DNA of 64,000 nucleotides from an uncultured bacterium (GCA_938045955.1 CALIBK010000105.1:5187-69186), one strand, 5' to 3'; shown: positions 4,201-28,865, numbered from the stretch's first letter. Numbers and translations: made by a program. Notes: generated by a model from the sequence alone, not told the origin.

Positions 4201-4568
4201 TCGGGGCTTCGGGTCCCATGATCAAAAGGGCAGCGGAGATGGTTCGTCGGGCCATTCGTTCTCCCACTCTTCAGCGTATTATTCACTCGGAGAATTATTA
4301 TAAAGAGGTTCCCTTCAGTTATAAAAAGAACGGGATCCTTTATGAGGGGGTAATGGATGTTGTTTTTAAGGAAAAGGATGGCCTGACCGTTCTCGATTTT
4401 AAGACGGATCTCGTCGATCCAGAGAATTTAAATTCAAAGGCTGAATCCTACAGGCCACAGGTAGAAGTCTATTCCGATGCGATTCAGAGCGTCTTTGGTA
4501 TCCCTCCAAAGGGGGTGATATTATTTTTTCTTCACCTCATGGAACCCTTTTTGATGCAACGTCATTAG
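1239..4568 (+). CDS. addA: AddA-like ATP-dependent helicase/nuclease (UvrD/REP superfamily 1 helicase with C-terminal PD-(D/E)XK nuclease)
   Basis: 1109 aa. Walker A AAAGTGKTT near N-terminus, UvrD motifs (LLVDEFQDTD, VGDPKQSIYRFRRAD), C-terminal nuclease block (VMDVVFKEKDG...LDFKTD). Translationally coupled to upstream addB-like gene. Confidence 0.8.
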   Translation: MTPDEKLIDQHQRDLATEDLSQSYIVEAAAGTGKTTILIKRILNLIRKGEAGLDEVVAITFTEKAASELKIRLRQELENALLKETHPDRIQHISEAISDLERMQITTIHSFCSSLLRERPVEANLDPNFEVADALMARLLQGEVWEGWLERKMENDDPALRRALSMGVKTDQIHEIARSLIENREILESLSVPPSLGNLEKAIHRFVEIFQENVASLNSLKQYCRKKEDKAFLTIEELNLKMKRLESISDREERERFLYKELPLPSPSKGNKSNWKPEDHLTKVREHFELIRENLEKIKGAIADSILTEMIATLRSYLDAYQETKKERNLLDFHDLLLFTRQMLKHHPGVRRYFRDRYRFLLVDEFQDTDPLQAEIIFFLSEEERSGATDWRTVKVANKRLFLVGDPKQSIYRFRRADIEMYEEAKTRIGQKRLLTISQNFRCVPSIIHVVNRIFQDLIKPPEDGQYQPGYVPLHFGRKNETIPPVHGMILLYPPKEEKVLITTVEECRYWESQCIASFIQRLRTEERWEVWDEENQSFRPIMFKDIAILMRNHNPLPFLEEALRSYGVGYRVAGGRSFYQRQEVQQLLNVLQAIDNPNDKVALIGALRSPFFGISDEDLFLFHARGGELNYLRDAPHTDLEEPFKLLKELHEIRNRVSVSILLQKLYEATRGLVLFLMKPQGEQRVMNLLKIGEVARALEERGLIHFRGFVRWLSERQEEEDEEEEPTALERGDDFVHLLTFHKAKGLEFPVVILTDLGHKGSDRANLIIDRNGGRIGIKIGSGKHPLQTLNFEELKKWEEQRRGAEERRLLYVAMTRARDFLVLPVFWVKDKKGGAKEIPSESFLGYLPSYLIDPDHVPDGEIEQDIIFYDPNRLNLTPEEEGPFRYPIHLEKQREEEKVQLSLTQFERWREAQRELKRRGGEGRPIATAIEKVEEIKANEESIIPLVTGGEGAIFGELVHHLFEKVDWHEPVLLNELAENEGKTLGASGPMIKRAAEMVRRAIRSPTLQRIIHSENYYKEVPFSYKKNGILYEGVMDVVFKEKDGLTVLDFKTDLVDPENLNSKAESYRPQVEVYSDAIQSVFGIPPKGVILFFLHLMEPFLMQRH

Positions 4569-4750
4569 GCTACCAAGCGAAAGGTATTTCCCCCAATTAA
4601 TCCAAAATCTTTGAATATGAAGATAGAAACCAATTTTATAGAGTTGAAGAAGGGTTGATATTAATTTAAAATTTTGATTAACCAGAAATTCGATTCGGGG
4701 GTTACAAAGCTTCACCTCCGTCATCCAAAGTCAAAGTCAAGGAGGAGGAT

Positions 4751-5254
4751 ATGAGAGGGAGACTCAAATTATTCTGGGTGGTTACCTTTCCTTTTATCCT
4801 ATTTTCCTGTCTTGGGGCAGGCAGGAATATTGTCTCAGAGGAACCTTTTCCGTTCATTCCTTACGATAGAGCATTTGATCTTACTTTGAAAGCTGCAAAC
4901 GAGATGCACGAAGAGTGTAGCAAAATAAATCCGATTAATTTTCCCACCGTAGTGTCTTTAGGGACAAGTAAATCGAGAGGGGTCATCACCATTCAATACA
5001 GGTTTGACCCAGAGGCTGGAAGTGTATGCAGAAAACCACCAGAAACCCTTTCATCTGTTGCAAAACGAGTTTTTGTCCCCCATTTTGGAGCTGAGTTCTT
5101 CATGCATATAAGATTTGTAAAGGAAGGGGAGGTGGCCAAAGGGGTAAAAATTGAAACCACTCAGATGAAAGGGGTCAAGAAAGAGGTCTTCGATAGAGAA
5201 ATGGAAAATCTAAAGGATTCTTATATGGCGTATTTAAAAAGATACTGGAGATAA
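4751..5254 (+). CDS. hypothetical exported protein (N-terminal signal peptide, possible lipoprotein)
   Basis: ATG at 4751 preceded by GGAGGAGG RBS; hydrophobic N-terminus MRGRLKLFWVVTFPFILFSCLGAG; no recognisable family. Confidence 0.45.
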   Translation: MRGRLKLFWVVTFPFILFSCLGAGRNIVSEEPFPFIPYDRAFDLTLKAANEMHEECSKINPINFPTVVSLGTSKSRGVITIQYRFDPEAGSVCRKPPETLSSVAKRVFVPHFGAEFFMHIRFVKEGEVAKGVKIETTQMKGVKKEVFDREMENLKDSYMAYLKRYWR

Positions 5255-5317
5255 TCTGAATCCGGGTGCTTCTGAAAAATTGATAAGGCTTGGTGACTGA
5301 AAGAGCCATGGTGAGTC

Positions 5318-5830
5318 TTAAAGGATCTTTTCCTCATTTAATCGACCTAACTGAATCTTCATTATCCTTTCATAGGGATCGGTATCTACATATTCAAAAC
5401 CAAATTTTTTATAAAGTTTGATGGCAATGAAATTGGAGAGGGGGACGGTCAGCCAGATGGATTCATAACCTAACTGGAAAGATTTCTGCAGGGCCAAACG
5501 CGTGAGTTCCGTTCCAATCCCCAGGTTTCGATGATCCTGATCTACAAAGATCACAAATTCTGCAGTCTTCCTTTTTGGATCAGGGATGAGGACTGCATGC
5601 CCGATCACTTGATCTCCCCTCCAGGCTAAAAGGTTCATTCCTATTTCCAGGAGATTATTCAACCAGCATCGGCAGACTTCGGGATCCTCGGGAGGAAGTC
5701 CTTGAGAGGCAGGTTTCGGAGAGAAGTGAAGATACATTTCGAGAAGAGACTCATAGTCTTCCGTGCAGCAGACCCCAATCGTAAAGGGATGACCTGACTT
5801 ATCGATTTTTTCAATTCGTTCGGGTTTCAT
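5318..5830 (-). CDS. GNAT family N-acetyltransferase
   Basis: 170 aa; acetyl-CoA binding-like segment (HRNLGIGTELTRLAL) typical of GNAT fold. Confidence 0.65.
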   Translation of the reverse strand: MKPERIEKIDKSGHPFTIGVCCTEDYESLLEMYLHFSPKPASQGLPPEDPEVCRCWLNNLLEIGMNLLAWRGDQVIGHAVLIPDPKRKTAEFVIFVDQDHRNLGIGTELTRLALQKSFQLGYESIWLTVPLSNFIAIKLYKKFGFEYVDTDPYERIMKIQLGRLNEEKIL

Positions 5831-5908
5831 TCAAGAGTTGGCCAAAGAGAAAAAGGCCATTTCATCAGTGAACCATTGGATCGCCCCAAACTGGCGGCAA
5901 AGAGTTTC

Positions 5909-7078
5909 TTAAAGGGCTCGGCCTGGAACTCCGATGTGTCTGGCAATGACAATCCGTTGAACTTCCGAGGTTCCTTCCCCAATGTCGAGGAGTTTCTGAT
6001 TCCGATAATGGCGCTCCACTGCGTATTCTTTCATCAATCCATACCCCCCATGGAGTTGAACGGCGTGATTGGCTACCCGGTGGTACATCTCAGAGCAAAA
6101 CATTTTTGCCATCGCTGATTCTTTGGAGAAGGGACGATGATTCTCACAGAGCCAGGTCGCCTTATACAGGATCAATCTCCCCAACTCGATCTCTGTAGCC
6201 ATATCTGCCAGTTTAAAGGCGTTAACCTGAAAAGAACCAATAGGCCTTCCGAACTGTTCCCTTTCTTTCGAATATTTAAGAGCTAATTCAAAGGCCCCCT
6301 GAGCTCCTCCCAGAGCCATGGCCGCAATGCTCAATCTCCCACCATCAAGAGTGGCCAGCATCTGCCGAAATCCATCCCCCCGTCTGCCCAGAAGATTCTC
6401 TTTGGGTACTTTGCAATCCTGGAAGTAAAGTTCTCCTGTGTTTGAGGCACGCCAGACCATTTTCCCGTGCATCGTCTTGGTGATAAAACCTGGGGTTCCG
6501 TTTGGAACCAGGATACAGGAGAGCTCATTTCTCCCGTCTTCTCGTTTTCCGGTTACGGCCTGGACCACACACACCTTACTGATGTCCGTGGTGGAATTGG
6601 TGATAAAGATCTTTGAGCCATTGATCACCCAGTAGTCTCCTTCCAGCACGGCAGTCGTCCGGGACGCCCCTGCATCGGAGCCTGCGTTGGGTTCGGTCAA
6701 TCCAAAGGAGGCCAGGGCCTTGCCCGTACAGAGATCAGGAAGCCACTGCTGTTTCTGTTCCTCGTTGCCATAGTAATAGATAGGGGAGATGCCGAGGGAG
6801 TTTCCTGCAGCAAGGGTTGCGGCCTGAGAGCCATCGATCCTTGCAATCTCCTCCACGGCAATGATATAGCTGAGGTAGCCCACATTGCTTCCACCATATT
6901 CTTCTGAAACGAAGGGACCGAAAAGGCCCAGCTCTCCCATCCGCCGGGTCAGATGGTAAGAGAACTCTTCCTTCTCATCCAGCTCCTGGGCCACCGGAGC
7001 AATCTCCTTCTCGGCAAAATTTCTGACCATTTTCCGTAGCATCTGTTGTTCTTCGGTAAGATCAAAATCGAGTGCCAT
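5909..7078 (-). CDS. acyl-CoA dehydrogenase (short/medium-chain, butyryl-CoA dehydrogenase-like)
   Basis: Start chosen at MALDFDLTEEQ (ATG at 7078) with GGAGG RBS; ACAD N-term, catalytic-base motif IGEGTSEVQ near C-terminus. Confidence 0.85.
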   Translation of the reverse strand: MALDFDLTEEQQMLRKMVRNFAEKEIAPVAQELDEKEEFSYHLTRRMGELGLFGPFVSEEYGGSNVGYLSYIIAVEEIARIDGSQAATLAAGNSLGISPIYYYGNEEQKQQWLPDLCTGKALASFGLTEPNAGSDAGASRTTAVLEGDYWVINGSKIFITNSTTDISKVCVVQAVTGKREDGRNELSCILVPNGTPGFITKTMHGKMVWRASNTGELYFQDCKVPKENLLGRRGDGFRQMLATLDGGRLSIAAMALGGAQGAFELALKYSKEREQFGRPIGSFQVNAFKLADMATEIELGRLILYKATWLCENHRPFSKESAMAKMFCSEMYHRVANHAVQLHGGYGLMKEYAVERHYRNQKLLDIGEGTSEVQRIVIARHIGVPGRAL

Positions 7079-7170
7079 AACTAACCTCCAAAAGGGATCG
7101 AGGGGACAAGGATTCAAGGAGTTAGGCTAAACCTTTTCCTCGAACCCTTGAACCCTGAGATCCTTGAATC

Positions 7171-7647
7171 CTATTTAATAGGTCTAAAATATTTGATATC
7201 TAAGATACTTCCCTCTCGTTCCTTTTTATCTTTGAAGACGGCTTCCACAGGCATGCCAAAATAGACATCTTTGAATTCCACCTCTCCGAGCCAGTGGACA
7301 AATCCCCCCTCCGTTCCATCAATTCGAATGACCGCCACAATGGAAGGAACTTCTTTCCTCACTCCATCATAGGTTTCGTAGCATTGGGTGAAGGTATGAA
7401 CCTTTCCTTTTGTCCCGACTTCGAGATAGTTTTCCTCCAGTCTTTCAAAACATTTTTCGCAATAGATTCGGGGAGGAACATAGATGAGGTTACACTGGTT
7501 GCATTTTGCTCCAAAAATCTTCCCGTTAATCATTTCACGAAAGAATTTTTCACCGGCTCTTCCAACCGTATAGATGTAACTCATCGGAATTTGCCCTTCC
7601 CAGTAAGTGACATCCGTCACCTTTTGAAATCTTTCGATCAATGCCAT
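7171..7647 (-). CDS. DUF35 family protein (Zn-ribbon + OB-fold), thiolase-associated
   Basis: 158 aa, CxxC...CxxC (CNQCNLIYVPPRIYCEKC) followed by OB-fold-like segment; GGAGGTG RBS; immediately downstream of SCP-x-type thiolase. Confidence 0.7.
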   Translation of the reverse strand: MALIERFQKVTDVTYWEGQIPMSYIYTVGRAGEKFFREMINGKIFGAKCNQCNLIYVPPRIYCEKCFERLEENYLEVGTKGKVHTFTQCYETYDGVRKEVPSIVAVIRIDGTEGGFVHWLGEVEFKDVYFGMPVEAVFKDKKEREGSILDIKYFRPIK

Positions 7648-7687
7648 ATTCTCACCTCCGTTCGTTAAATTTGAGAAAGGGTATAGA

Positions 7688-8218
7688 TTATTCGACCGGT
7701 TTAAAATATTTGATATCTGTAATCGCTCCGATTCTCTCCTCTGGTGGTTTCCAGACAGCCTTGACTCTCATCCCTCGATAGATCTTCCACGGATCTACCT
7801 CGTTAAGGAGATGAAGGATTCCCATTCCCTTGGTAGCACCATCAATTTCAATCACTGCTGGGGTGAAGGGTCTTACGCCTCCTTTGATATCAAGGCGTCC
7901 AGCTTTCCAATCCACATAACTGATGACCCAGGTATTCACGATCCCGGTATCCTTCACATAAACCCACTCCCCGGTTGGAACCCAGCAGAGTTCACAGAAC
8001 ATCCTTGGAGGAATCAAGATGCGATGACATTTATTACATTTTTTAGCAATAATCCTTCCGTTTTTTAATTCTGCCAGATAGCGTCCCAGTGCTGGTCCAT
8101 TATCCCAGGCATACTTTAAATTGGGTGTCCACTTGACAGAGAGAACTTTTCCTTTCTGTATATCTTCAGCGCTTAATTTTGTTGCGGTTTTAGCTACCAT
8201 TTTATCGGTAATTTCCAT
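7688..8218 (-). CDS. DUF35 family protein (Zn-ribbon + OB-fold), second paralog
   Basis: 176 aa, CNKCHRILIPPRMFCELC zinc ribbon; RBS GGGGAGGTG; adjacent to thiolase. Confidence 0.7.
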   Translation of the reverse strand: MEITDKMVAKTATKLSAEDIQKGKVLSVKWTPNLKYAWDNGPALGRYLAELKNGRIIAKKCNKCHRILIPPRMFCELCWVPTGEWVYVKDTGIVNTWVISYVDWKAGRLDIKGGVRPFTPAVIEIDGATKGMGILHLLNEVDPWKIYRGMRVKAVWKPPEERIGAITDIKYFKPVE

Positions 8219-8233
8219 AATTTCACCTCCCCT

Positions 8234-9391
8234 TTAGCTTCTCATTACAACCACCGTCCCCACCTGCATCAGGTCACCCCATGCCTGGGCCAAACCACAG
8301 GTGGGTTTTCCAGGGACCTGTCTTTTACCCGCCTCCCCGCGGAGCTGTAAAAAGATTTCGATAATCTTCATCAATCCCGTTGCTGATATGGGGTTACCTA
8401 CCCCCAGAGCCCCCCCAGAAGGGCAGGTTGGAAGGTTTCCATCTCTGTTGAAATATCCATCTTTCAACATTTCCACAGATTTTCCTCTCGGCGCCAGGAG
8501 AAGACCTTCGATGTGATGAAGTTCCTTGTAGGTGAAGGGATCATAAGGCTCGGCCACATGGATCTCCTTGGAAGGCTCTTTGATCCCTGCCATCTTGTAG
8601 GCCATCCTTGCAGCGACCTCCACATAGTCGGGATAATAGAGATCTCTTGTACACCAGTAGGCTGTATCAAGACACCAGCCTACTCCATCAATCCAGATGG
8701 GTTTTTCAGTCACTCTTCTTGCCACATGCTCTGCAGCCAGAACAATCGCTGCGGCCCCATCACTCGTTGGGCTAATATCGAGGCGATTCACAGGCCATGC
8801 CATGATTTCGGAATTGAGAACGTCCTGGACGGTAATCTCAGCACCCAGTTGGGCTGAAGGGTGATCCAGGGCATTCCTTTTATTTTTGACTGCGACCAAC
8901 GCAATATCCTCTTTTTTATAACCCCATGTGGTCATAAAACGATTCATTTCAATCGCAAAAATCCAGATCAGAGTAGGGTAAAGAGGTTGTTCGGTGGTGT
9001 GATCAAAGATCGTCAAAAAGGCTCCGGCAGGATGTGGATAGGCGGATGACATTTTCTCTTCAGCCACCACTAAACAGGTATCAAACATTCCCGAGGCTAC
9101 ATGGAACCAACCATGGATCGGAGAGAGGACACCTGTCCCTCCTCCCACAAAGTGTCTCATATAAGGTTTTCGATAGGCACCCGCACCATCTGCAAGATAC
9201 TCTCCTTTCATATGCACTCCATCAAAGGCATCGGGTGCTGTACCCATCACTACACAATCAATATCTGAGAGTTTCATTTCACAGGAATCAAGGGCCATCC
9301 TGGCAGCTTCGTAAGCCAATTCTTTAGGCGTTTCCTGAGCATTACGATAAAATTTAGTCAATCCAGCTCCGACGATTGCTACTCTTCTCAT
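8234..9391 (-). CDS. thiolase-like protein, SCP-x / nonspecific lipid-transfer-protein-type (DUF35-partnered)
   Basis: 385 aa, N-term MRRVAIVGAGLTKF, thiolase fold with C-terminal GGALGVGNPISATG; strong RBS. Confidence 0.8.
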   Translation of the reverse strand: MRRVAIVGAGLTKFYRNAQETPKELAYEAARMALDSCEMKLSDIDCVVMGTAPDAFDGVHMKGEYLADGAGAYRKPYMRHFVGGGTGVLSPIHGWFHVASGMFDTCLVVAEEKMSSAYPHPAGAFLTIFDHTTEQPLYPTLIWIFAIEMNRFMTTWGYKKEDIALVAVKNKRNALDHPSAQLGAEITVQDVLNSEIMAWPVNRLDISPTSDGAAAIVLAAEHVARRVTEKPIWIDGVGWCLDTAYWCTRDLYYPDYVEVAARMAYKMAGIKEPSKEIHVAEPYDPFTYKELHHIEGLLLAPRGKSVEMLKDGYFNRDGNLPTCPSGGALGVGNPISATGLMKIIEIFLQLRGEAGKRQVPGKPTCGLAQAWGDLMQVGTVVVMRS

Positions 9392-9409
9392 TTTCTCTCA
9401 CCTCCTTCT

Positions 9410-10558
9410 TTAATTACTCAATATCACCACAGTTCCTGTAGCGGTGGGTATCCCTCTCCAGCTTTGGGCAAGTCCGGTGGTGACATTCTTGATTTGATTC
9501 TTCCCTGCTTCTCCTCTCAACTGCCGCACGACCTCAAGGACTTTAAGTCCTCCGTTCAATTCATAGAGATTCCCCACTCCCAGACAACCTCCAGAGGGGT
9601 TGACTGGAAATTCTCCATTAATCTCGGTACCACCCATTGCGGTAAAGGCTCCTGCTTCTCCTTTTCTAAAGATCCTCATGGCTTCGAGGTGTTGAAGTTC
9701 TTTATAGGAGAACTCATCATTGACTTCTGCAAAGTCAATCTCCTTTCGAGGATATCGAATTCCTGCCATCTTATAGGCCATCTCTGCGGCTATCTGAGCG
9801 TAGACGGCCTCTCCCCAATTTCGGGTTTCAAGTCCGGGAGTATCGGAGCACCATCCGATGCCTCTTATCCAGATGGGCTTATCAGTAAGGGCTTTCGCGG
9901 TTTCCTCTTCCGCGAGAACCACAACCACAGCTCCATCTGAATGAGGGGCAATATCCATCTGAGTGAGTGGGTAAGAAACGACTTCAGAGTTCAGGACATA
10001 GTCGATATCCACAAGAACCCCATGGCCTGCATAGGGGTTTGTCAGAGCATTTCTTCTATTTTTTACCACCACTTGAGCAATCTGCTCTCTTGTGGTACCG
10101 GTTTCATACATAAATCTTGCCATCTCTAACCCTGCCACTGCATGAGGACTTTCCTTCAATGGTCTATTATAAATTGGATCCATTGCAAATGTGACCATTT
10201 CGGAGAGAGTAAGCATATTGGAGGCTTTACTGAGGCCCTGGACTACCGAGATGGGACCGATCCCTGAGAGAATCATCATATAGGCTGATGCCAGGGAATG
10301 GATAAAGTCTCCAGGTACGGTATAGATGGGTTTAAGCACTGCCCCTAACTGATCCGGAGAATACTCATCGGCGATGCTGTATCCCTCAAAAAAATCCTCG
10401 GCAGTGCTGACAAAAGAATCCACATCCTTAGGTTCGATGCCTGCATCCAGATAGGCCTTCATTGCCGCTTCATAGGTCAACTCGCGATAGGACACATCAG
10501 GAGTCGTTGCCCGAAATCCTGTGGTTCCTATTCCAACAATAGCCACTCGTTTAGTCAT
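9410..10558 (-). CDS. thiolase-like protein, SCP-x type, second paralog
   Basis: 382 aa, MTKRVAIVGIGTTGF..., C-terminal GGCLGVGNLYELNG; RBS GAAAGGAGGG. Confidence 0.8.
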   Translation of the reverse strand: MTKRVAIVGIGTTGFRATTPDVSYRELTYEAAMKAYLDAGIEPKDVDSFVSTAEDFFEGYSIADEYSPDQLGAVLKPIYTVPGDFIHSLASAYMMILSGIGPISVVQGLSKASNMLTLSEMVTFAMDPIYNRPLKESPHAVAGLEMARFMYETGTTREQIAQVVVKNRRNALTNPYAGHGVLVDIDYVLNSEVVSYPLTQMDIAPHSDGAVVVVLAEEETAKALTDKPIWIRGIGWCSDTPGLETRNWGEAVYAQIAAEMAYKMAGIRYPRKEIDFAEVNDEFSYKELQHLEAMRIFRKGEAGAFTAMGGTEINGEFPVNPSGGCLGVGNLYELNGGLKVLEVVRQLRGEAGKNQIKNVTTGLAQSWRGIPTATGTVVILSN

Positions 10559-10782
10559 TGTTGAATTCCCTCCTTTCGTTCCTTATTTTTAGCCTTGAGT
10601 GATCATTCATTAAAATAGCCTGTAAGTGCTTCACCTCCTTTCTCATCGGATGCGATTGACAATCCATGAAAGTCGATTAATAAAAATTCTTCCTTTCCCT
10701 TCAAAGGGGCCTAAGAATCTCTCCTGAATTCCACTTAACGTAAACTGTAAAATTAAACCAAAAAAATAGAACCCCACCCGTA

Positions 10783-11190
10783 TTACTTCCGTGGTTTAAT
10801 ATTTTCTTTGACCCATCGGACGGCTTCCTCGATGGGGGTTCCCGGGGTGAAGATGGCTTTCACGCCTGCCTGTTGGAGGGAAGGGATATCTTCTTCCGGG
10901 ATGATTCCACCTCCGAAGACGATGATATCTTCGGCTCCTTTTTCTTTGAGCAGTCGGATGACTTCCGGGAAGACGTAGTCATGAGCGCCAGAGAGGATAG
11001 ACAGTCCGATGGCGTCCACGTCTTCCTGGATGGCTGCGTTGACGATCTGTTCCGGGGTCTGGTGGAGTCCGGTGTAGATGACCTCGAAGCCTGCGTCCCG
11101 GAACCCTCGGGCGATGACTTTCGCCCCCCGGTCGTGTCCATCGAGTCCGGGTTTTCCGATAAGGATTCGAATTTTTCGTTCCGTGCTCAT
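10783..11190 (-). CDS. B12-binding small subunit of a split methylmalonyl-CoA-mutase-family acyl-CoA mutase (isobutyryl-CoA mutase small-subunit-like)
   Basis: 135 aa; cobalamin-binding DxHxxG motif ([11 protein letters not shown]), Rossmann-like B12 domain. Confidence 0.85.
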
Positions 11191-11220
11191 GGTCTCTCCT
11201 CGGGTTAAGGATTCAGGGAT

Positions 11221-12894
11221 TTAGAAGTATCCCGGGTCGGTGTATCTTCCGAAGACTTCCCTCCAGACGTCACAGATCTCCTGGATGGTGGCATACTCCC
11301 GGACGGCATTGATGATGTAGGGCATCAGGTTTTCTCCACTGATCGAGGCCCGTCGGATCTCTTCGAGGCACTGTTTGACCTTTTCGTTGTTTCGGGTTCT
11401 TTTGACTTCCTTAAGTCTTCTCAGTTGTCTTTCTTCGATTTCCGGTCTCATTCTCCAGATGGGGATAGGGGGGTGGTCGGTGACGTATTTATTTACTCCT
11501 ACGATGACCTTTTCGCCTGAGTCCACCTGTTTCTGGAATCGGTAGGCGGCCTCTGCGATCTCCATCTGGGGGTATCCCCGTTCGATCGCTTTGATCATTC
11601 CTCCCATCTCGTCGATCTTTCGGATGTATTCCCAGGCCTTCTCTTCGATCTCATTGGTGAGGGCTTCGACGAAGTAGGAGCCTGCGAGGGGGTCGATGGT
11701 ATTGGTGACTCCGGTCTCTTCGGCGAGGATCTGCTGGGTTCTCAGGGCGATCGTGACCGCTTCTTCTGTGGGGATGGCGTAGGTTTCATCGAGGGAGTTG
11801 GTGTGAAGCGACTGGGTTCCTCCGAGCACCGCGGCCAGGGCCTCGTAGGCAGTCCGGATGATGTTGTTGTAGGGTTGCTGGGCGGTGAGGGAGCATCCTG
11901 CGGTCTGGGTGTGGAAGCGGAGCATCCAGGATCTTGGGTTTTTGGCCAGAAAGCGTTCTCTCATGATCTTGGCCCACATTCTTCGGGCGGCTCGGAACTT
12001 AGCGATCTCTTCGAAGAAGTCGATGTGGGAGTCGAAGAAGAAGGAGAGTCTTGGGGCGAATTCATCGACATCGAGGCCTCGTTCCATGGCTGCTTCCACG
12101 TAGGCGATGCCATCGGCCAGGGTGAAGGCCAGTTCCTGGACGGCTGTGGCTCCTGCCTCACGGATATGGTAACCGCTGATGCTGATGGTATTCCATCGGG
12201 GGACTTCCCGGGTGCAGTATTCGATGGTATCGACGATGATTCGAAGGGAGGGTTTGGGTGGGAGCATGAAGGTCTTCTGGGCGATGAACTCTTTGAGCAT
12301 GTCGTTCTGAATCGTCCCTCCGATCTGTCTCTTGCTCACCCCCTGTTTTTCGGCGACGACGATATACATGGCGAGCAGGATAGAGGCAGGGGGATTGATG
12401 GTCATCGAGGTGGTTACTCGATCGAGGGGGATTCCTTCGAAGAGAATCTCCATATCTTTCAGGGTATCGACGGCAACCCCGCACTTTCCGACCTCTCCCC
12501 GGGCCATGGGGGAGTCACTGTCGTATCCCATCAGGGTCGGGTAATGGAAGGCGATGGAGAGCCCTGTCTCTCCGTGGTCGAGGAGGTAGTGGAAGCGTTT
12601 GTTGGTCTCTTCAGGTCCTCCGAGTCCTGAGAACATCCTCATCGTCCAGAGTCTTCCCCGATACATGGAGGGCTGGACTCCCCGGGTAAAGGGATAGATC
12701 CCTGGAAAGCCGATATCTCTCGAATAGTCCAGATCTTTGATATCCTCAGGAGTGTAGAGGGGTTTGATCTCGAGATCGGAGACGGTGGTGAATCGGGGAA
12801 GTCGCTCAGGTCTCTCACAGAGGGTCTTAGAGAGTTCTTCGTTCCATTTCTTCTTCTCCTCTTTGACCTTTTGGATCTGCTCCTCCTTAAACAT
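11221..12894 (-). CDS. acyl-CoA mutase large (substrate-binding TIM-barrel) subunit, isobutyryl-CoA-mutase-like
   Basis: 557 aa; conserved MCM-family blocks ([24 protein letters not shown]; [18 protein letters not shown]; [15 protein letters not shown]). Positions equivalent to MCM Tyr89/Arg207 read Phe/Gln by eye alignment. Confidence 0.85.
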
Positions 12895-12953
12895 ATCGTA
12901 TCACTCCTTGTGACGCTCTGGATATAACGCCAGAGCACCTTATTTGCTTATTT

Positions 12954-13478
12954 TTAGATTTCGATCCCTTCTCGGGACTGGATCCCTTTTTGATAGTAGT
13001 GTTTTCTTTCGACCATCTCCGTGACCAGATCGGCTTTTTCGAGGATCTCCGGTTTTGCGTATCTTCCCGTGAGGATGAGCTCCACGGATTCGGGTTTGGA
13101 TTCCATGAGCTCAAGAACTTCTTTGAGGGGAATCAGGCCGTAGTCCACCGCCACATTGATCTCGTCCAGGATGACGATATCATAGGCTTTGCTACGGATG
13201 GCTTCTCTGGCAAGTTCGAATCCTTTTCGGGCCAGTTCCGTATCGATCGGATCGGGATTCGTTCTGGAGACGAAGGTCTCTCTGCCCATCTGGTTGATTG
13301 TGAGGTGAGGGGAGAGCCTTTTTGAGGCCTCGAGTTCTCCGTACTGGATGTTTCCCTTCATGAACTGGATCATCAGGACTTTGAGGCCGTGGCCCGCTGC
13401 TCGAAGGGCGAGGCCCAGGGCAGCGGTTGTCTTTCCCTTTCCATCTCCTGTATAGACCTGAATGAGACCTTTTTTCAT
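12954..13478 (-). CDS. cob(I)alamin adenosyltransferase (CobA/CobO/BtuR type)
   Basis: 174 aa; P-loop-like GLIQVYTGDGKGKTTAALGLALRAAGHG characteristic of CobA-type ATP:corrinoid adenosyltransferase; sits directly upstream of the mutase genes. Confidence 0.8.
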   Translation of the reverse strand: MKKGLIQVYTGDGKGKTTAALGLALRAAGHGLKVLMIQFMKGNIQYGELEASKRLSPHLTINQMGRETFVSRTNPDPIDTELARKGFELAREAIRSKAYDIVILDEINVAVDYGLIPLKEVLELMESKPESVELILTGRYAKPEILEKADLVTEMVERKHYYQKGIQSREGIEI

Positions 13479-13485
13479 AAGATTC

Positions 13486-15420
13486 TTAACTCAGCTCTCT
13501 GATCTGGGCGATGATCTGTTCGGTTTTGAAGTGTCTCAGGCTGATGGCGCTTGAGGGGCAGGTGGCGTTACAGGCCCCGCATCCTTTGCAGAGGGCTTCG
13601 TTGACACTCATCACCTTTCGATAGGGATCGAGTCTGAGGGCACGGTATTCGCAGATCTGTTCACAGAGGCCACAGCCTGCACAGACGAGTTCATCCACGT
13701 GGGCGGTGATCGGTTCGATCTTTACCTTTCCTGCAAAAAGCGGGACCGTAGCCCTCGAGGCTGCCCCGTGAGCCTGTGAGAGGGTATCCTGGATATCCTT
13801 GGGTCCCTGACAGGTGCCGGCGAGAAAGATCCCATCGGTTGCGGTATCGAGGGGTCTCAGTTTTGGATGGGCCTCGAGGTAGAAACGATCGGGTCCCTGA
13901 GAGAGTTTAAGGAGGCTTCTCAGTCCGTCGGAGTCAGCCCTCTGGGTAAGGCCTGTGGCGAGCACCACCAGATCAGCTTCCTCTTCATAGGGTTCTCCGA
14001 GGAGTTCGTCATCGGCTCGGATGAGAAGCTTTCCATTTCTCTGGATGATCTCGGAAGGGACCCCTTTTCGATAGAGAATCCCCTTCTTCTGGACCTGTTC
14101 GTAAAACTGTTCGTATCCCTTTCCAAAGGCTCTTACATCGATATAACAGATCGTGATCCTCGCTTCTGGAAGAAGTTCTTTGGCGAGGAAGGCCTGCTTG
14201 GCCGTAAACATGCAGCACACCCTTGAGCAGTATTCATTATTGACTGTCTTATCCCGTGAGCCCACACACTGGATAAAGAAGATCCTTTCGGGTTCTTTTC
14301 CGTCGATGAGGAGTCTTCCTTTCGTGGGTCCTTCGGGGGAGAGAAGCCTTTCGAACTCAAGGGCGGTAAGGACATTTGGATAGAGGCCGTAGCCCAATTC
14401 GGGTTTCTTTTTTGGATCGAAGGGGTCATAACCCGTGGCTACAATGATGGTCCCGATGGGGATGTCGATCTCCATCCCCACCTCCTCGAACTGAACCGCT
14501 CCTTCCGGGCAGACCTCCCGGCATCGAGTGCATTCTCCTTTTCGAAGATAGAGGCAGTGTTCGGGATCGATTAGGTAACTCAATGGAAAGGCATAAGGAG
14601 AGGGCAGATAGATGGCCTTTCTGCGGTCAAGGCCCATGTTCCATTCGTTGGGAATTTCAACCGGGCAGACCTTCTCACACTCTGCGCATCGATTACACTT
14701 CAGGGGATCCACGAAGCGGGGATACTTTCTGAGCTTTACTTTGAAGTTCCCTACGAATCCCTCCACTCCCGTCACCTCACAGAGCGTTAAAACGTGAAGA
14801 GAAGGGTATTGCTTGAGTGTCTCGATTCTGGACCTCAGGATTTCTGAGGTCTCCTCAAGGTTGGGGAAGGTTCGTGAGATCTGGGTGAGATGACCACCGA
14901 TCGACGGAGCCTTCTCCACGAGATAGACCTCGAAACCCGATGAAGCGATATCCAGAGAGGCCTGAATACCCGCGATTCCGGCTCCGATGATGAGGACAGA
15001 GGGAGTCACAGGGGCCTCTTTCTCCTCAAGGGGTTCGTGAAGGGAGACCCTGGCCACTGCCGAGGCTACAAGCTCCATTGCCTTCCGGGTTGCCTCATCA
15101 CGATCCTGATGGACCCAGGAGCACTGCTCCCGGATGTTTGCCATTTCGAAGAAATAAGGATTGAGTCCGGCTGAGCGAATCGCATTTCGATAAGTGGGCT
15201 CATGCATCCGTGGAGAACAAGCCGCAACCACAATCCGGTCGAGGCCAAGGGCTTTGATATCATTCTTGATAAGATCCTGACCTGGATCGGAACACATGTA
15301 CTGATAATGACGGGCCACCTCCACATGGGGAAGGGTCATCGCAAAGGCTCTTACTCGTTCCACATCTACTGTGGCCGCTATATTGATCCCGCAATGACAG
15401 ATATAAACACCGATCTTCAT
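13486..15420 (-). CDS. hdrA: heterodisulfide reductase subunit A-like flavoprotein (HdrA)
   Basis: 644 aa; N-terminal Cys-rich HdrA block (GVYICHCGINIA...YMCSDPGQ...VVAACSPRMHE...REQCSWVH), FAD motif IIGAGIAGIQASLD, two 2x[4Fe-4S] ferredoxin-like inserts (CNRCAECEKVCP / CTRCREVCP; CAGCGLCEQICE / CKGCGACNATCP). Confidence 0.85.
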   Translation of the reverse strand: MKIGVYICHCGINIAATVDVERVRAFAMTLPHVEVARHYQYMCSDPGQDLIKNDIKALGLDRIVVAACSPRMHEPTYRNAIRSAGLNPYFFEMANIREQCSWVHQDRDEATRKAMELVASAVARVSLHEPLEEKEAPVTPSVLIIGAGIAGIQASLDIASSGFEVYLVEKAPSIGGHLTQISRTFPNLEETSEILRSRIETLKQYPSLHVLTLCEVTGVEGFVGNFKVKLRKYPRFVDPLKCNRCAECEKVCPVEIPNEWNMGLDRRKAIYLPSPYAFPLSYLIDPEHCLYLRKGECTRCREVCPEGAVQFEEVGMEIDIPIGTIIVATGYDPFDPKKKPELGYGLYPNVLTALEFERLLSPEGPTKGRLLIDGKEPERIFFIQCVGSRDKTVNNEYCSRVCCMFTAKQAFLAKELLPEARITICYIDVRAFGKGYEQFYEQVQKKGILYRKGVPSEIIQRNGKLLIRADDELLGEPYEEEADLVVLATGLTQRADSDGLRSLLKLSQGPDRFYLEAHPKLRPLDTATDGIFLAGTCQGPKDIQDTLSQAHGAASRATVPLFAGKVKIEPITAHVDELVCAGCGLCEQICEYRALRLDPYRKVMSVNEALCKGCGACNATCPSSAISLRHFKTEQIIAQIRELS

Positions 15421-15454
15421 CCACAGCCTCTCGCAACGCGCACGGTGCTAAGCG

Positions 15455-17698
15455 TTACTTTGAACCCCTCATTTTCCCTCTCGCAAGGAGGGTGCAGGCA
15501 AGAGCGGCTGCTCCGCTTGCCTGAGCCACCGTGTCCGGGATATCTTTCGGACCCTGACAGCAGCCGGCAAGAAAGATCCCCTCGACCGATGTTCTTATGG
15601 GGTCATGCCCCGGGGCCTCTGCAAAAAAACCCTCATCGGAATTCTCGAGACGAAGAATCTTTCCCAGCCACTCGCTCTCCTTTCGAGGAACGAGCCCTGA
15701 AGCGAGGACCACCAGATCTGCCTCGAGTTCGAAGGGCTCCCCAAGAAGGGTATCCTCCCCTCTGACTATGAGCTTCCCATCCCTTCGGTAGATCTCCGAG
15801 GGATTGGCCCTTCGATAGACGATATGCTCCTTCTGGACCCTCTCGTAGAACTCTTCGAATCCCTTTCCGAATGCCCTCACATCCATATATAAAACAGTAA
15901 TCCGAGCATCCGGAATCTTATCCCTCAAGAGATGAGCCTGCTTGGCCGTATACATACAACAGACCCTGGAACAGTATTCATTACCAACCGTCTTATCCCT
16001 CGATCCCACACAGTGGATAAAGACCACCTCTTTCGGTTTCTTTCCGTCGATCAGAATCTCTCCCCTGGTGGGTCCTGAGGCGGAGCATAGCCTCTCCATC
16101 TCGAGCCCATGGAGCACATTCGGATAGAGGCCGTATCCAAACTCGGGTTTCTTCTTCGGGTCAAAGGGATCAAAACCCGTGGCAAGGATAATGGCTCCAA
16201 CATGAAGCTCCACAATCTCTTCCTTCATCTCATAGTTAATGGCTCTGGGCTGGCAGTATCTCGCACACTCCCCGCAGTCCGAGCAGCCTCCACAGCTGAG
16301 ACACCTCCTGGCCTCCTCCATCGCCTCCTCTGCGCTGAGACCCGGGCCCATGGGTCTCACCATATCCGGAAGGGATTCCCGCTTATCCCTCTCCTTCTCA
16401 GGAAGCTCGCTCCGGATGGGAGAGGGTTTTTCTCTTTCAGGCTCTCTATCTTCATGGAGGTCATGACCCCTGAGGTAGCGATCGATAGAGCGAGCAGCCT
16501 TCCTTCCCTGAGCCATCGCCTCAACGATACTTCCAGGCCCCCTCACCGCATCCCCTCCAGCAAAGACCCCCTCAAGATTTGTCTGAAGTGTCACAGGATC
16601 AACCTCGATCATCCCCCTCCGATCCCTCTTCAAATCCCTGAGAGCTTTTGAGAGAGGCTCCACTCCATTTGATCCCACACCCAAAAAGATTGCCCCGTAA
16701 GAGGCTCGAATCTCCTCGAAGGAGAGATCCTTCCCTACCTCTGTATGGAGTCGAACCTCGATTCCCATCCTTTCGATGAGAGAGAGGTCTCTGCGGACAA
16801 TTTCTCGCGGAAGACGATAGGAAGGAAACCCATGGGTGAGGAGTCCTCCCAGCTCTTCCATGGATTCAAAGATCGTGACCCGATAACCCATCCTCCGAAG
16901 ATCGAAGGCCGAAACCAGCCCCGAAGGCCCTCCACCCACAATGGCGACTCTTTGAGGTCTCTCTTCGGGGAGTTCAAACTGAAACTCCGGCTCCTCCACA
17001 TGATCCACAAGAAACCTCTTCAGATCGCAGATCCTCACCGGGCGATCCACATCGATCCGCTTGCACTGCCGCTCACAGGGATGACTGCAAACATAGGCCA
17101 GGATCCCGGGGAAGGGAAGGGCTTTTCGAACCAGACTCAGAGCCTCTCGGAACTTCCCATGAGAGATTAATGCTACATATCCCTGAGCATTACAGCCGAG
17201 AGGACAGGCCGCCCGACAGGGAGGGATTCCACGTCGATCAATCGTATACTTCAAGGGAACGGCCTGAGGAAATGGAATATAGATGGCCTTCCTCATCCCG
17301 AGGCCCATATCAAACTCATTGGGAAGGGTGACAGGACACTGAGCCACACAATCCGCACAGGCCGTACATTTGTTAATATCCACGTAGCGGGGCTTCTTAC
17401 GAACCTTGACTCTAAAATCTCCCGCCCTTCCTTCGATGGAGATGATCTCTGAGTAGGTGAGCAGATTGATATTGGGATGATTGGCTGTATCCACCATCTT
17501 GGGGGTGATGATACAGGCCGAACAGTCAAGGGTGGGGAAGGTCTTATCCAGTTGGGCCATGTGACCACCGATTGAAGGCTCCTTCTCGACCAGATGGACG
17601 AGAAACCCCTTGTCTGCAATATCGAGAGCAGCCTGCATCCCGGCTATGCCCCCACCTATGACCAGAGCCTCGGGAATCGTTCTCTCTTCAAAATTCAT
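15455..17698 (-). CDS. HdrL-type large HdrA-like flavoprotein with inserted NAD(P)H-binding (GltD/NfnB-like) domain
   Basis: 747 aa; HdrA-like FAD motif VIGGGIAGMQAALD at N-term and HdrA-like C-terminal half (CVGSRD...CSRVCCMY...FLAGCCQGP). Inserted region has ferredoxin Cys motifs and a second Rossmann motif VAIVGGGPSGL...GGDAVRG. Confidence 0.8.
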   Translation of the reverse strand: MNFEERTIPEALVIGGGIAGMQAALDIADKGFLVHLVEKEPSIGGHMAQLDKTFPTLDCSACIITPKMVDTANHPNINLLTYSEIISIEGRAGDFRVKVRKKPRYVDINKCTACADCVAQCPVTLPNEFDMGLGMRKAIYIPFPQAVPLKYTIDRRGIPPCRAACPLGCNAQGYVALISHGKFREALSLVRKALPFPGILAYVCSHPCERQCKRIDVDRPVRICDLKRFLVDHVEEPEFQFELPEERPQRVAIVGGGPSGLVSAFDLRRMGYRVTIFESMEELGGLLTHGFPSYRLPREIVRRDLSLIERMGIEVRLHTEVGKDLSFEEIRASYGAIFLGVGSNGVEPLSKALRDLKRDRRGMIEVDPVTLQTNLEGVFAGGDAVRGPGSIVEAMAQGRKAARSIDRYLRGHDLHEDREPEREKPSPIRSELPEKERDKRESLPDMVRPMGPGLSAEEAMEEARRCLSCGGCSDCGECARYCQPRAINYEMKEEIVELHVGAIILATGFDPFDPKKKPEFGYGLYPNVLHGLEMERLCSASGPTRGEILIDGKKPKEVVFIHCVGSRDKTVGNEYCSRVCCMYTAKQAHLLRDKIPDARITVLYMDVRAFGKGFEEFYERVQKEHIVYRRANPSEIYRRDGKLIVRGEDTLLGEPFELEADLVVLASGLVPRKESEWLGKILRLENSDEGFFAEAPGHDPIRTSVEGIFLAGCCQGPKDIPDTVAQASGAAALACTLLARGKMRGSK

Positions 17699-17707
17699 GG
17701 GTTAAAT

Positions 17708-18862
17708 TTATTTCAGTTTTCCTATCAGTGCGGAGGCGATGGTATTTTTCTGGATCTCTTTGGTCCCTTCGTAGATCTCCATGATCTTGGCATCCCGATA
17801 GAATCGCTCCACTTCGTACTCCGTAATATACCCGTAGCCTCCAAAGATCTGGATCGCCTCATCAGCGACCTCCACTGCCACCTTCGCCGAAAACATCTTC
17901 GCCATCGAGGTGAGCTTCGGATCAATCCCTTTATGATCAAAGTTCCAGGCCGCTTTATAGGTGAGAAGCCTTGCCGTCTCCACCTTGGTTGCCATATCGG
18001 CAAGCTTGTGCTGGGTGATCTGAAACTCCACGAGCTTCCTGCCGAACTGCTCCCTCTGGCGGGCATAATCGAGAGCCCGATCGAAGGCCCCCTGGGCAAT
18101 CCCGAGGGCCTGGGCCGCGATCTCAATCCGACTTTCGTCAAAGAACTCGAGAACCTGGTAAAACCCCTTCTTCTCTTCCCCGATCAGGTTGCTCACAGGA
18201 ACCCTCACATCACTGAAGGAGAGCTCTGCCGTAGAGGTCATCCGAATCCCCATCTTCGGAGTAATCTCCGAGACCTCAAGACCCTTTACCCCCTTCTCCA
18301 CCAGAATCGTACACTGACCCCGATAGGTAGGTCTCGCCTGAGGATCGGTTTGACAGAGAACCACAAAGAAATCGGCCAGAGAACCATTGGTGATAAAGGT
18401 CTTTGTCCCATTGATCACGAAGAAGTCTCCCTCCCTCACAGCAGTCGTTGACATCAGCGTGATATCACTTCCATGATTGGGTTCTGTATAGGCCCCACCC
18501 GAGATAGACTCGCCGCGGGTTATCGGAGGAAGATACCTCTTCTTCTGCTCCTCAGAACCAAAGCGAAGAATCACCTCCGAGGAGAAGTCCGTAAGGCTGA
18601 GGGCGACTCCCACCCCCGAGTCCTTCCGACAGAACTCCTCCACGATCAGGATATTCTCCATCACTCCATATCCCTGTCCCCCATAATCCTCAGGGAAATG
18701 GATCCCTATGAATCCGAGCTTTGCTGCCTTTTTCCATATCTCAAAGGGAAAGGCATGCTCCTTCTCCCACCGGAGGATCTTCTCCTTATCATACTCCCCT
18801 TCCATAAACTCACGGGCTGCCTTCTGAATATCCCTCTGCTCCTCGGTCAACTCAAAGTCCAT
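17708..18862 (-). CDS. acyl-CoA dehydrogenase (butyryl-CoA dehydrogenase-like)
   Basis: 384 aa; ACAD fold, catalytic motif IYEGTKEIQ; RBS GGAGGAGG; immediately upstream of hdrL and downstream of etfAB. Confidence 0.85.
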   Translation of the reverse strand: MDFELTEEQRDIQKAAREFMEGEYDKEKILRWEKEHAFPFEIWKKAAKLGFIGIHFPEDYGGQGYGVMENILIVEEFCRKDSGVGVALSLTDFSSEVILRFGSEEQKKRYLPPITRGESISGGAYTEPNHGSDITLMSTTAVREGDFFVINGTKTFITNGSLADFFVVLCQTDPQARPTYRGQCTILVEKGVKGLEVSEITPKMGIRMTSTAELSFSDVRVPVSNLIGEEKKGFYQVLEFFDESRIEIAAQALGIAQGAFDRALDYARQREQFGRKLVEFQITQHKLADMATKVETARLLTYKAAWNFDHKGIDPKLTSMAKMFSAKVAVEVADEAIQIFGGYGYITEYEVERFYRDAKIMEIYEGTKEIQKNTIASALIGKLK

Positions 18863-18880
18863 GAATCCTCCTCCGAACCT

Positions 18881-20649: not shown

Positions 20650-20668
20650 CACCAAGACCTCCTCTTTA

Positions 20669-23173: not shown

Positions 23174-23179
23174 CTCCTC

Positions 23180-25030: not shown

Positions 25031-25033
25031 CTC

Positions 25034-25513
25034 TTACGAAAAACTCCGAATCGCCTCAAGGGCCTTCCTTAAATCGAGGCCCCCGAAGGTCTCCTGCCCA
25101 ACCGCCATCACCGGTGCAAGCCCACAGGCCCCAAGACAACGAACCGCCTCGAGAGAAAACCTCCGATCCCTCGTCATCCCCCCAACCTCCACCTCCAACT
25201 CTCGCTGCAAACCCTCCAGAATCTCCTTCGACCCTCGAACATAACAGGCCGTCCCTAAACAGACCCGAATCACATGCCTCCCCCTCGGATGAGTCGTAAA
25301 AAAAGAATAAAAAGAGACGACCCCGAATACCTGAGACGAAGAAAGATGAAGCCCCTCGGCCACCCTCTGCTGAACCCTCCGAGGAAGATACCCACAGATG
25401 TCCTGAACCTCCTTAAGAACCGGGATCAACGCCCCAGGCCTCCCCCGATACCGAGAAATCACCTGCTCAACCCTCTCCCACTCCTCCTTCGAAATCGTCT
25501 CAACCCACCTCAT
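25034..25513 (-). CDS. NuoE-like 24-kDa-type [2Fe-2S] thioredoxin-like ferredoxin subunit
   Basis: ATG at 25513 (track shows an upstream TTG) overlaps the stop of the preceding gene (ATGA); motif HVIRVCLGTACYVRGS...CLGACGLAPV. Confidence 0.8.
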   Translation of the reverse strand: MRWVETISKEEWERVEQVISRYRGRPGALIPVLKEVQDICGYLPRRVQQRVAEGLHLSSSQVFGVVSFYSFFTTHPRGRHVIRVCLGTACYVRGSKEILEGLQRELEVEVGGMTRDRRFSLEAVRCLGACGLAPVMAVGQETFGGLDLRKALEAIRSFS

Positions 25514-26661: not shown

Positions 26662-26726
26662 TCAGATTAGACTCCTTCAAATTGGATTGCGATTTTATTC
26701 ACAATCTCATTCGTAACAAATTTATA

Positions 26727-28829: not shown

Positions 28830-28865
28830 CAAACCCTCCGTGAAAAGATTATTGCAAAGTTAACA

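Follow-up and report, generated by a model that had tools for sequence, protein, structure and literature searches.

What do two paralogous thiolase-like genes encode when they lie in a bacterial beta-oxidation setting beside two genes for DUF35 proteins? The question is raised by a four-gene module at positions 7171–10558 of a 64,000-nucleotide stretch of DNA from an uncultured bacterium (GCA_938045955.1 CALIBK010000105.1:5187-69186; we call this whole stretch the window). Exactly four minus-strand open reading frames (ORFs) fill these positions, without remainder, and are transcribed in the order TA-TB-DA-DB. TA and TB are proteins of thiolase fold and are 40% identical to each other; DA and DB are stand-alone DUF35 proteins, 39% identical. 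Public sources label the homologues of TA and TB as acetyl-CoA acetyltransferase. An earlier note on this DNA had also counted four genes here, flanked by a Bcd-like acyl-CoA dehydrogenase (ACAD) and an isobutyryl-CoA mutase (ICM)-like mutase, and Pfam confirmed both flanks. The note took the products for thiolases specialized for an unusual 3-oxoacyl-CoA or for condensation, a function that the active-site residues contradict. As a tentative alternative, to which we give a probability of about 0.4, we propose that TA, TB, DA, and DB form a heteromeric enzyme with one active site, located in TB, that would perform cysteine-independent carbon–carbon chemistry on a coenzyme A (CoA) thioester. 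By its residues and by analogy to known systems, this chemistry would most likely be aldolase-like.

The genes are genuine. Orthologues reach 98–100% identity to the window proteins, and scanning a single genome for each species recovered at least 591 related genomic stretches, the best 80 of which provide the locus statistics reported below. The gaps separating the four genes in the window are 18, 15, and 40 nt, and DA starts 15 nt past the TB stop codon.

Active-site residues and subunit roles

We compared TA and TB with five reference structures: the archaeal acetoacetyl-CoA thiolase (ACAT, 6esq), BbsB (7pxp_C), the P. furiosus thiolase (7yvy), ST0096 (4yzo), and the zebrafish SCP2 thiolase (6hsj). 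Pairwise HMMER alignments to these references and a MAFFT alignment of ~107 sequences were concordant on the residues replaced in both proteins. The loop that carries the nucleophilic cysteine in the references (AACASGS in 6esq, SACSAGA in BbsB, and NNCSTGS in SCP2) is V82GGGTGV88 in TB, which has Gly84 at the cysteine position in place of the CASG loop; TA has Phe85 and a one-residue deletion. At the position of the HDCF/HDAF motif, all 65 TB orthologues have Y283-D-P-F (within E281PYDPFxYK289) and TA has N-D-E-F, which varies across orthologues. Asparagine replaces the histidine of the GH(P) motif in both proteins (G-N333-P in TB and G-N-L in TA), and the C-terminal CxG loop reads W371-G-D373 in TB and W-R-G in TA. 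Furthermore, no cysteine is invariant anywhere in the 65 TB or 62 TA orthologues. The covalent acyl-enzyme, whose formation defines thiolysis and the thiolase Claisen condensation, is therefore unavailable to either protein. A thiolase activity of TA and TB is essentially excluded on these residues, and the term thiolase is valid for their fold only.

The fold itself is well supported. Pfam assigns both proteins to the alpha-beta-alpha-beta-alpha fold of thiolases, and an AlphaFold2 (AF2) model of TB agrees (predicted local distance difference test [pLDDT] of 89.7 and predicted template modeling score of 0.92). This model was built from a 60-sequence alignment of three subfamilies; a shallower alignment of 20 sequences, all 79% identical or more, yielded a pLDDT of 37. 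Foldseek matched the TB model best to 7yvy and 6et9, with template modeling (TM) scores of 0.87–0.94 (0.94 for 6et9, an archaeal ACAT). The top structural neighbors are mainly thiolase-fold proteins whose structures were solved in complex with DUF35 or whose genes adjoin DUF35 genes, and include 6et9, BbsB, PhlC, MucABC, Sal (9myr), Ltp2 (6ok1), 7yvy, and ST0096. Thus, the SCP2-type assignment made earlier stands for the fold, which is of the SCP2/archaeal type, but not for the catalytic residues of a thiolase, all of which are absent. TB is a member of the NCBIfam family NF004721 (PRK06065; score of 641.9 against a cut-off of 455), and TA is formally a non-member of NF004722 (PRK06066), with a score (486.6) slightly under the cut-off of 516. 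Both models carry the name “thiolase domain-containing protein” and no function.

The pattern of conservation differs between the two paralogues. At a threshold of 98% of the sequences or more, 149 of the 385 positions of TB are conserved across its 65 orthologues, which come from about ten phyla, compared with 61 positions across the 62 orthologues of TA. The conserved set in TB takes in all the active-site loops of a thiolase. The near-invariant loops are V82GGGTGV88, I128FDHTTE134, N173-A-x-x-H177-P, D205-x-S-P, E281PYDPFxYK289, P324SGGxLGVGNPI335, and W371GDLMQ376, in which no position is conserved below 94%. They contain several invariant polar residues (H131, E134, H177, D205, and D373). 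The equivalents of the catalytic positions drift in TA, where residue 280 is D/N/S/C, residue 282 is E/T/I/L, and residue 330 is H/N/D/Y. This makes TB the candidate catalytic subunit and TA a probable non-catalytic, structural partner. Indeed, constrained loops in TB and variable equivalents in TA are what would be expected of a heterodimer if one subunit carried the only working site and the other had a structural role. The same division into one active subunit and one partner operates in KS/CLF, ChsH1/ChsH2, and FadE28/FadE29.

Both DA and DB have the two domains of DUF35 proteins, a zf-ChsH2 zinc ribbon (PF12172; C-x2-C...C-x2-C) followed by an OB_ChsH2_C OB fold (PF01796), with matches over the curated cut-offs (5.5e-06 and 2.2e-07 in DA; 7.4e-07 and 4.8e-11 in DB). 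The ribbons, CNKC...CELC in DA and CNQC...CEKC in DB, are conserved in 48 and 52 orthologues, respectively. The closest match of DA in the Protein Data Bank (PDB) is SSO2064 (3irb, 4.9e-11), and the DUF35 domain of ChsH2 (6ok1_B) is a weak match. DB also matched SSO2064 best (4e-20), as well as the DUF35 protein of the archaeal complex of ACAT and HMG-CoA synthase (HMGCS) (6esq_E, 3.5e-11), and PhlB (1.6e-3). Two natural fusions in a library of representatives at 50% identity, P0241 (731 aa) and P0253 (562 aa, N-terminally truncated), join TB to a DA-like and a DB-like DUF35 domain through plausible linkers. In both fusions the second zinc ribbon is degenerate and retains two to three of the four cysteines.

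We envision a heterodimeric TA:TB core in which each protomer would be clamped by its own zinc-ribbon/OB-fold protein, in the DUF35:T:T:DUF35 arrangement (T, thiolase-fold subunit) of solved complexes. In the structure of Sal, for example, two DUF35 domains flank a central dimer (PMC12329534). By analogy, a TA:TB heterodimer would require a distinct DUF35 protein on each side, and this would account for the number of genes in the module.

Proposed chemistry and its alternatives

The analogy to complexes of thiolase-fold and DUF35 proteins that the earlier note drew holds, and the steroid side-chain aldolases in its list are the most relevant members. Ltp2 and Sal have a thiolase fold without the nucleophilic cysteine and carry a catalytic base tyrosine in place of the HDCF histidine (Y-D-H-F in Ltp2 and Y-D-C-Y in Sal) (PMC12329534). 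Sal has glycine at the former cysteine position, and both enzymes require a DUF35 partner (PMC12329534). Within the module only TB combines a cysteine-less fold with a tyrosine in a Y-D-x-[FY] motif (G84 and Y283-D-P-F); TA does not. The invariant tyrosine, the glycine, and the DUF35 partners shared with Ltp2 and Sal are the reasons why we treat the module as aldolase-like. The steroid retro-aldolases (TcLtp2-ChsH2, 6ok1; CtSal-Shy, 9myr; and Atf1-ChsH4) also act after an ACAD and a hydratase, and the ChsH4 partner of Atf1 in Mycolicibacterium is a stand-alone DUF35 protein (PMC10398937), like DA and DB. In contrast to the module, with its two thiolase-like subunits and two DUF35 proteins, these enzymes are homodimers with one kind of DUF35 partner. 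The module also differs in having no MaoC fusion and no steroid genes, and in its uncultured anaerobic hosts and short-chain acyl-CoA neighbors. Thus, a cysteine-less thiolase fold that works with DUF35 as a non-thiolytic carbon–carbon lyase is already known, whereas the 2+2 heteromeric architecture, the Y-D-P-F/Asn active site, the very high conservation, and the spread in non-steroid anaerobes have not been described previously.

In the mechanism that we propose, no acyl-enzyme could form and the single site in TB would catalyze the retro-aldol cleavage of a short-chain 3-hydroxyacyl-CoA or, in reverse, the aldol addition that produces it. Tyr283 would serve as the general base on the beta-hydroxyl, and Asn333 and the glycine-rich loop would stabilize the thioester enolate. 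Asp373, His131, and His177, all conserved, are candidate proton donors. In this scheme the module would follow the ICM-type mutase, the Bcd-like ACAD, and a hydratase whose gene lies elsewhere. Conversion of 3-hydroxybutyryl-CoA to acetaldehyde and acetyl-CoA, or of 3-hydroxy-3-methylbutyryl-CoA to acetone and acetyl-CoA, are examples of reactions of this type. The more specific proposal that the module is a widespread, four-subunit short-chain 3-hydroxyacyl-CoA aldolase of anaerobes, built on a cysteine-free thiolase fold, is quite unlikely in our estimation.

Several observations weigh against an aldolase-like enzyme. The second catalytic residue of these aldolases (Tyr344 in Ltp2 and Cys304 in Sal) has no counterpart in TB, which lacks both known proton donors: Pro285 occupies the place of Cys304 in Sal and of a histidine in Ltp2, and Asn333 that of Tyr344 in Ltp2 and Gln352 in Sal. 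The Asn333 equivalence comes from the conserved 50-residue spacing (Y294–Y344 in Ltp2 and Y302–Q352 in Sal) and the alignment to thiolases, not from a direct alignment to 6ok1 or 9myr. Nor do sequence or structure group TB with Ltp2 and Sal by common descent. The E-value of TB is 2.7e-47 with the true thiolase 7yvy, 4.2e-24 with 9myr_A, and 1.2e-19 with 6ok1_A; likewise, Sal and Ltp2 take Foldseek ranks 39–40 (TM of 0.82–0.84), behind the true thiolases. TB is thus nearer to true thiolases, so any aldolase chemistry would be convergent; for this reason, and for the absence of the proton donors, we do not file the module in the Ltp2/Sal family. No enoyl-CoA hydratase (ECH or MaoC) is encoded in the whole 64-kb window. 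The module of most phyla stands alone as an operon surrounded by housekeeping genes, and the context there yields no substrate. The TA/TB/DA/DB heterotetramer is itself inferred from gene order, fusions, and analogy, and our literature search found no publication on the module.

Other pairings of thiolase-fold and DUF35 proteins differ from the module in their catalytic residues or composition. PhlABC, the ACAT/HMGCS/DUF35 complex, and MucABC also combine, in one operon, two different subunits of the thiolase superfamily with DUF35. Unlike TA and TB, they have at least one subunit with a catalytic cysteine (the thiolase, HMGCS, or Cys88 of PhlC), their second subunit is of the HMGCS or KAS III type rather than an SCP2-type paralogue, and they have a single DUF35 species. 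BbsAB (7pxp) resembles the module in sequence (3.8e-33) and fold, with an SCP2-type thiolase-fold subunit and a DUF35 subunit that serve an anaerobic beta-oxidation-like pathway in Desulfobacterota and Betaproteobacteria. However, BbsB retains the cysteine nucleophile and the HDAF and GH motifs of a real benzoylsuccinyl-CoA thiolase, is paired one to one with its DUF35 protein, and belongs to a clade that does not include TA or TB. The closest genetic precedent for two adjacent thiolase-like genes is the Ltp3/Ltp4 pair of actinobacterial sterol degraders (Wilbrink et al. 2012, cited in PMC10398937). These adjacent paralogues, of the “lipid-transfer protein” kind, are jointly needed for the cleavage of a branched side chain, in an aerobic steroid catabolism that sets them apart from the module. 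Ltp3 and Ltp4 have reportedly been proposed as aldol-lyases.

The evidence above also bears on four other readings of the module. It is highly improbable that TA and TB are genuine SCP2-type thiolases that work with DUF35 partners on unusual or branched 3-oxoacyl-CoA, or in the condensing direction. The fold, the nearest solved structures (which are real thiolases), the public name, and the beta-oxidation neighbors would fit such enzymes, but the nucleophilic cysteine, the histidine and cysteine of HDCF/HDAF, the GH histidine, and the CxG cysteine are missing from both proteins, which also have no invariant cysteine and cluster outside the canonical thiolase clade. In addition, the curated NCBI name claims a thiolase domain only, and the same operon already supplies a conventional thiolase II. 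The loss of all the canonical residues could instead mean that the four proteins are a non-catalytic scaffold, a pseudo-enzyme complex that would bind acyl-CoA and organize or channel it between beta-oxidation enzymes or the mutase. DUF35 proteins do scaffold known complexes, such as archaeal ACAT/HMGCS and KT/ACR/HCD (PMC12329534; bioRxiv 10.1101/2024.07.05.601840), and the neighbors of the module vary (mutase, ACAD, ECH, thiolase II, and short-chain dehydrogenase/reductase [SDR]). We nevertheless consider a scaffold rather unlikely: the former active-site loops are among the most conserved parts of TB, whose orthologues retain 70% identity or more in different phyla, a pattern that fits a working site and not the decay seen in TA, and most genomes carry the operon without the genes of partner enzymes.

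Two further readings retain a catalytic role for TB. One is a cysteine-independent decarboxylase of malonyl-, methylmalonyl-, or ethylmalonyl-CoA that would resemble KS-Q/CLF domains and the T. brucei SLP (TbSLP). TbSLP, a structural neighbor of TB with a YDCF motif, slowly decarboxylates malonyl-CoA according to work cited in PMC12329534, and in the window's clade the module is followed, after a few kb, by genes for a methylmalonyl-CoA carboxyltransferase, a methylmalonyl-CoA mutase (MCM), and an epimerase. Such a decarboxylase is nonetheless improbable: the linked mutase has the non-carboxylate Phe/Gln pair rather than Tyr/Arg, the methylmalonyl genes are absent from the window and from most loci, and CtSal, which has a Y-D-x motif, shows no decarboxylase activity (PMC12329534). 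The other is a different type of acyl-CoA chemistry, be it hydration/dehydration, isomerization/epimerization, thioester hydrolysis, or a citrate-synthase-like, non-covalent Claisen/aldol condensation with hydrolysis. It is consistent with the missing hydratase of the beta-oxidation operon and with the invariant polar residues of TB listed above, as well as with the CitE/HpcH-type acyl-CoA lyase gene found just upstream in six Chloroflexota loci. We regard it as unlikely, since the thiolase fold offers no precedent for it and two loci (L037 and L085) have a normal crotonase beside the module, which speaks against a simple replacement of that enzyme. This adjoining ECH also weakened the idea that the module stands in for a missing crotonase. 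We rejected the anaerobic acetone pathway of sulfate reducers as well (PMC8084838): it uses one thiolase and one DUF35 protein, its thiamine diphosphate enzyme is absent here, and it needs a 2-hydroxyisobutyryl-CoA mutase whereas the window mutase has the Phe/Gln signature of ICM.

Distribution and gene order

Gene order is a fixed property of the module. All 65 loci with enough flanking DNA, from at least ten phyla, have the order TA-TB-DA-DB, typically with gaps of ~15–40 nt, and two of them have insertions between the genes. The two loci are from Chloroflexota metagenome-assembled genomes (MAGs) and have ~0.5–1 kb of extra sequence between TA and TB (L049, ~8047–12938, and L060, ~8289–11826); L049 also has extra sequence between TB and DA, and the module genes are tightly packed elsewhere. 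The hosts of the best 80 loci belong to Desulfobacterota, Krumholzibacteriota, Actinomycetota, Chloroflexota, Spirochaetota/Leptospirales, Myxococcota/Bdellovibrionota, Planctomycetota, Firmicutes (Syntrophomonadaceae and Symbiobacterium), and Bathyarchaeia. We looked for a cultured host, and MAGs are the source of all these 80 loci and of every named homologue. Deposited copies of TA and TB that are 97–98% identical (P0049 and P0122) lie on a 3.6-kb contig assigned to a MAG named “Candidatus Methanomethylicaceae archaeon”; this assignment is probably a binning artifact.

The earlier note had proposed a T-D-T-D order (D, DUF35 protein) that arose by tandem duplication of a whole thiolase/DUF35 pair. 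Two DUF35 partner genes are indeed present by Pfam, but the order is T-T-D-D and the paralogues are ~40% identical in an arrangement kept across phyla. This means that the duplication is old rather than recent. The four-gene module is an ancient one by these comparisons, with the 2+2 architecture as its conserved unit.

In the library of representatives, full-length members of the TB family are at least 61% identical to the window TB and the next relatives are 43% identical. The relatives of TB split into two large cysteine-less groups, a B-type that includes TB (T-G-G-x-T-G loop, tyrosine at the position of the HDCF histidine, and [ST]-N-P-I-G motif) and an A-type that includes TA (x-D-G-x-x-A loop with a deletion). 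The comparison with BbsB, archaeal ACAT, and SCP2 thiolases that had been suggested for this locus places TA and TB in two separate clades: in a crude, indicative neighbor-joining tree that left out Ltp2 and Sal, both types stand apart from the clade with 6esq, 7yvy, BbsB, and SCP2 thiolases. A sister family (43–50% identical to TB) also has an A-type/B-type/DUF35/DUF35 operon, amid housekeeping genes.

A Leptospirales MAG (L057, 30–8031) carries a second, divergent module (36–40% identity) in the order D-T-T-D. It is followed by TetR, two ACADs, and two small MaoC-like hot-dog genes, and lies directly upstream of a canonical set of XRE/cupin, T-T-D-D module, and ACAD. This layout recalls the logic of the steroid ChsE/ChsH/Ltp2 genes.

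Genomic context and significance

The module of the window is part of a block that begins with a corrinoid adenosyltransferase and contains a B12-dependent mutase (Table 1). The order in the window's clade is adenosyltransferase, mutase, module, and ACAD, followed in relatives by a MeaB-like GTPase. The adenosyltransferase is kept upstream of the mutase in related loci, and a MeaB/ArgK-like GTPase gene comes after ACAD1 or directly after DB in L003, L005, L007, L008, L011, L042, L048, and L063. Accessory genes of the mutase therefore bracket the module in these relatives. No MeaB/ArgK-type GTPase was matched among the ORFs of the 64 kb scanned with Pfam or NCBIfam; its site in the window is taken by a GNAT acetyltransferase. 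Linkage of mutase and module is limited to the window's clade and to L037 and L063.

Table 1. Coordinates of the module, its neighbors, and the conventional thiolase of the window
Feature	Position	Strand	Description	Identity to window protein across related loci
GNAT acetyltransferase	5318-5830		Downstream of ACAD1, at the MeaB site of relatives	
Bcd-like short-chain ACAD (ACAD1)	5909-7117	minus	Three ACAD Pfam domains; best NCBIfam matches are acryloyl-/butyryl-type ACADs	
DB	7171-7647	minus	158 aa; second stand-alone DUF35	35-81%
DA	7688-8218	minus	176 aa; stand-alone DUF35 (Zn ribbon + OB fold), longer N-terminal extension	45-93%
TB	8234-9391	minus	385 aa; thiolase fold, B-type, Cys-less; Pfam Thiolase_N + Thiolase_C_1 (2.6e-28)	70-96%
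TA	9410-10558	minus	382 aa; thiolase fold, A-type, Cys-less; Pfam Thiolase_C_1 (1.4e-31)	49-92%
ICM-type mutase, B12-binding subunit	10783-11190	minus	Pfam B12-binding (5.1e-26)	
ICM-type B12-dependent mutase, large subunit	11221-12894	minus	Pfam MM_CoA_mutase (3.3e-234)	
ATP:corrinoid adenosyltransferase (CobA/CobO type)	12954-13478	minus	Pfam CobA_CobO_BtuR (4.8e-68); first gene of the mutase-module block	
Thiolase II	28866-30044	minus	Conventional, all domains; same operon	

The mutase of the window has the signature WTMRMF...IAQK, whose Phe/Gln pair we take to be the mark of isobutyryl-CoA-type mutases. Related loci encode a second mutase at a distance of a few kb, whose Tyr/Arg signature (RQY...AR) is that of MCM. 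We also compared a second motif in the window and in related loci L003–L011, L037, L048, and L063. The linked mutase carries AFH[YF]PT in the window's clade, and the methylmalonyl-CoA mutases of the same loci and the mutase of L037 carry AFD[LF]PT. The specificity of the linked mutase may thus be other than plain isobutyryl-CoA/butyryl-CoA. The 224-nt gap between its small subunit and TA has promoter- or terminator-like sites no more often than shuffled sequences, and an Rfam search of positions 4500–14000, which include this gap, gave no match at E ≤ 1.

ACAD1, which the public record starts at an internal ATG (389 aa), has orthologues directly downstream of DB in Desulfobacterota (79–94% identity), Spirochaetota (70–71%), Actinomycetota (56–57%), and some Chloroflexota. 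Overall, 21 of the 80 loci have an ACAD within 5 kb of the module. The gene order is thiolase II, 3-hydroxybutyryl-CoA dehydrogenase (HBD), crotonase, ACAD, mutase, and module in L037, and SDR, module, TetR, crotonase, thiolase II, and EtfBA in L085. Upstream of the module in the window, the same strand encodes MerR, thiolase II, HBD, two ACADs, EtfB, EtfA, two HdrA-like proteins, and HdrD-like, NuoE/F-like, and FdhA/NuoG-like proteins. Hence, the context places the module in short-chain acyl-CoA metabolism without naming its substrate.

The electron-transfer set of the operon at 13486–30471 comprises two HdrA-like flavoproteins, NuoE/NuoF-like proteins, an FdhA/NuoG-like molybdopterin protein, EtfAB, and an HdrD/CCG protein. 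Such a set points to a confurcating/bifurcating disposal of acyl-CoA electrons, as in syntrophs. Over the FdhA-like and NuoF-like genes (20001–26000, read on the plus strand), GC skew reaches -0.40 and AT skew +0.26, values much more extreme than elsewhere in the window. A separate block at 41764–63716 encodes subunits of a molybdoenzyme of the xanthine dehydrogenase family (48758–52640), TRAP and TctC transporters, two AMP-forming ligases, an IclR regulator, NrfD-like membrane proteins with ferredoxin and CCG proteins, and ThiF. A role in the catabolism of aromatic or heterocyclic acids is possible for this block, which appears unrelated to the module. In eight Chloroflexota loci (L059, L062, L065, L068, L069, L077, L079, and L081) the module ends a conserved string of housekeeping genes (fabD, fabG, asp23-like, nusB, tatA, and tatC), and the CitE/HpcH-type lyase gene mentioned above lies directly upstream of TA in six of these eight.

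Many MAG annotations name these proteins acetyl-CoA acetyltransferase, and metabolic reconstructions will count TA and TB as thiolases. Identity of at least 70% in TB over about ten phyla, together with the fixed order of the operon, marks a function that is important and conserved. Should this function be that of a short-chain acyl-CoA aldolase, the steroid-specific chemistry of Ltp2 and Sal would extend into the general metabolism of anaerobes, and the schemes of beta-oxidation and chain elongation would gain a new reaction, an aldolase shunt past the 3-oxoacyl-CoA and thiolase steps. In reverse, the enzyme would form carbon–carbon bonds in a manner thermodynamically easier than Claisen condensation. 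Such an enzyme would change how the oxidation of (iso)butyrate and branched-chain acids, or chain elongation, is modeled in syntrophic and subsurface bacteria. If the function proves to be otherwise, the module would still be a rare assembly of two paralogues and two DUF35 proteins, with one preserved and one decayed site, that informs how the thiolase fold is repurposed.

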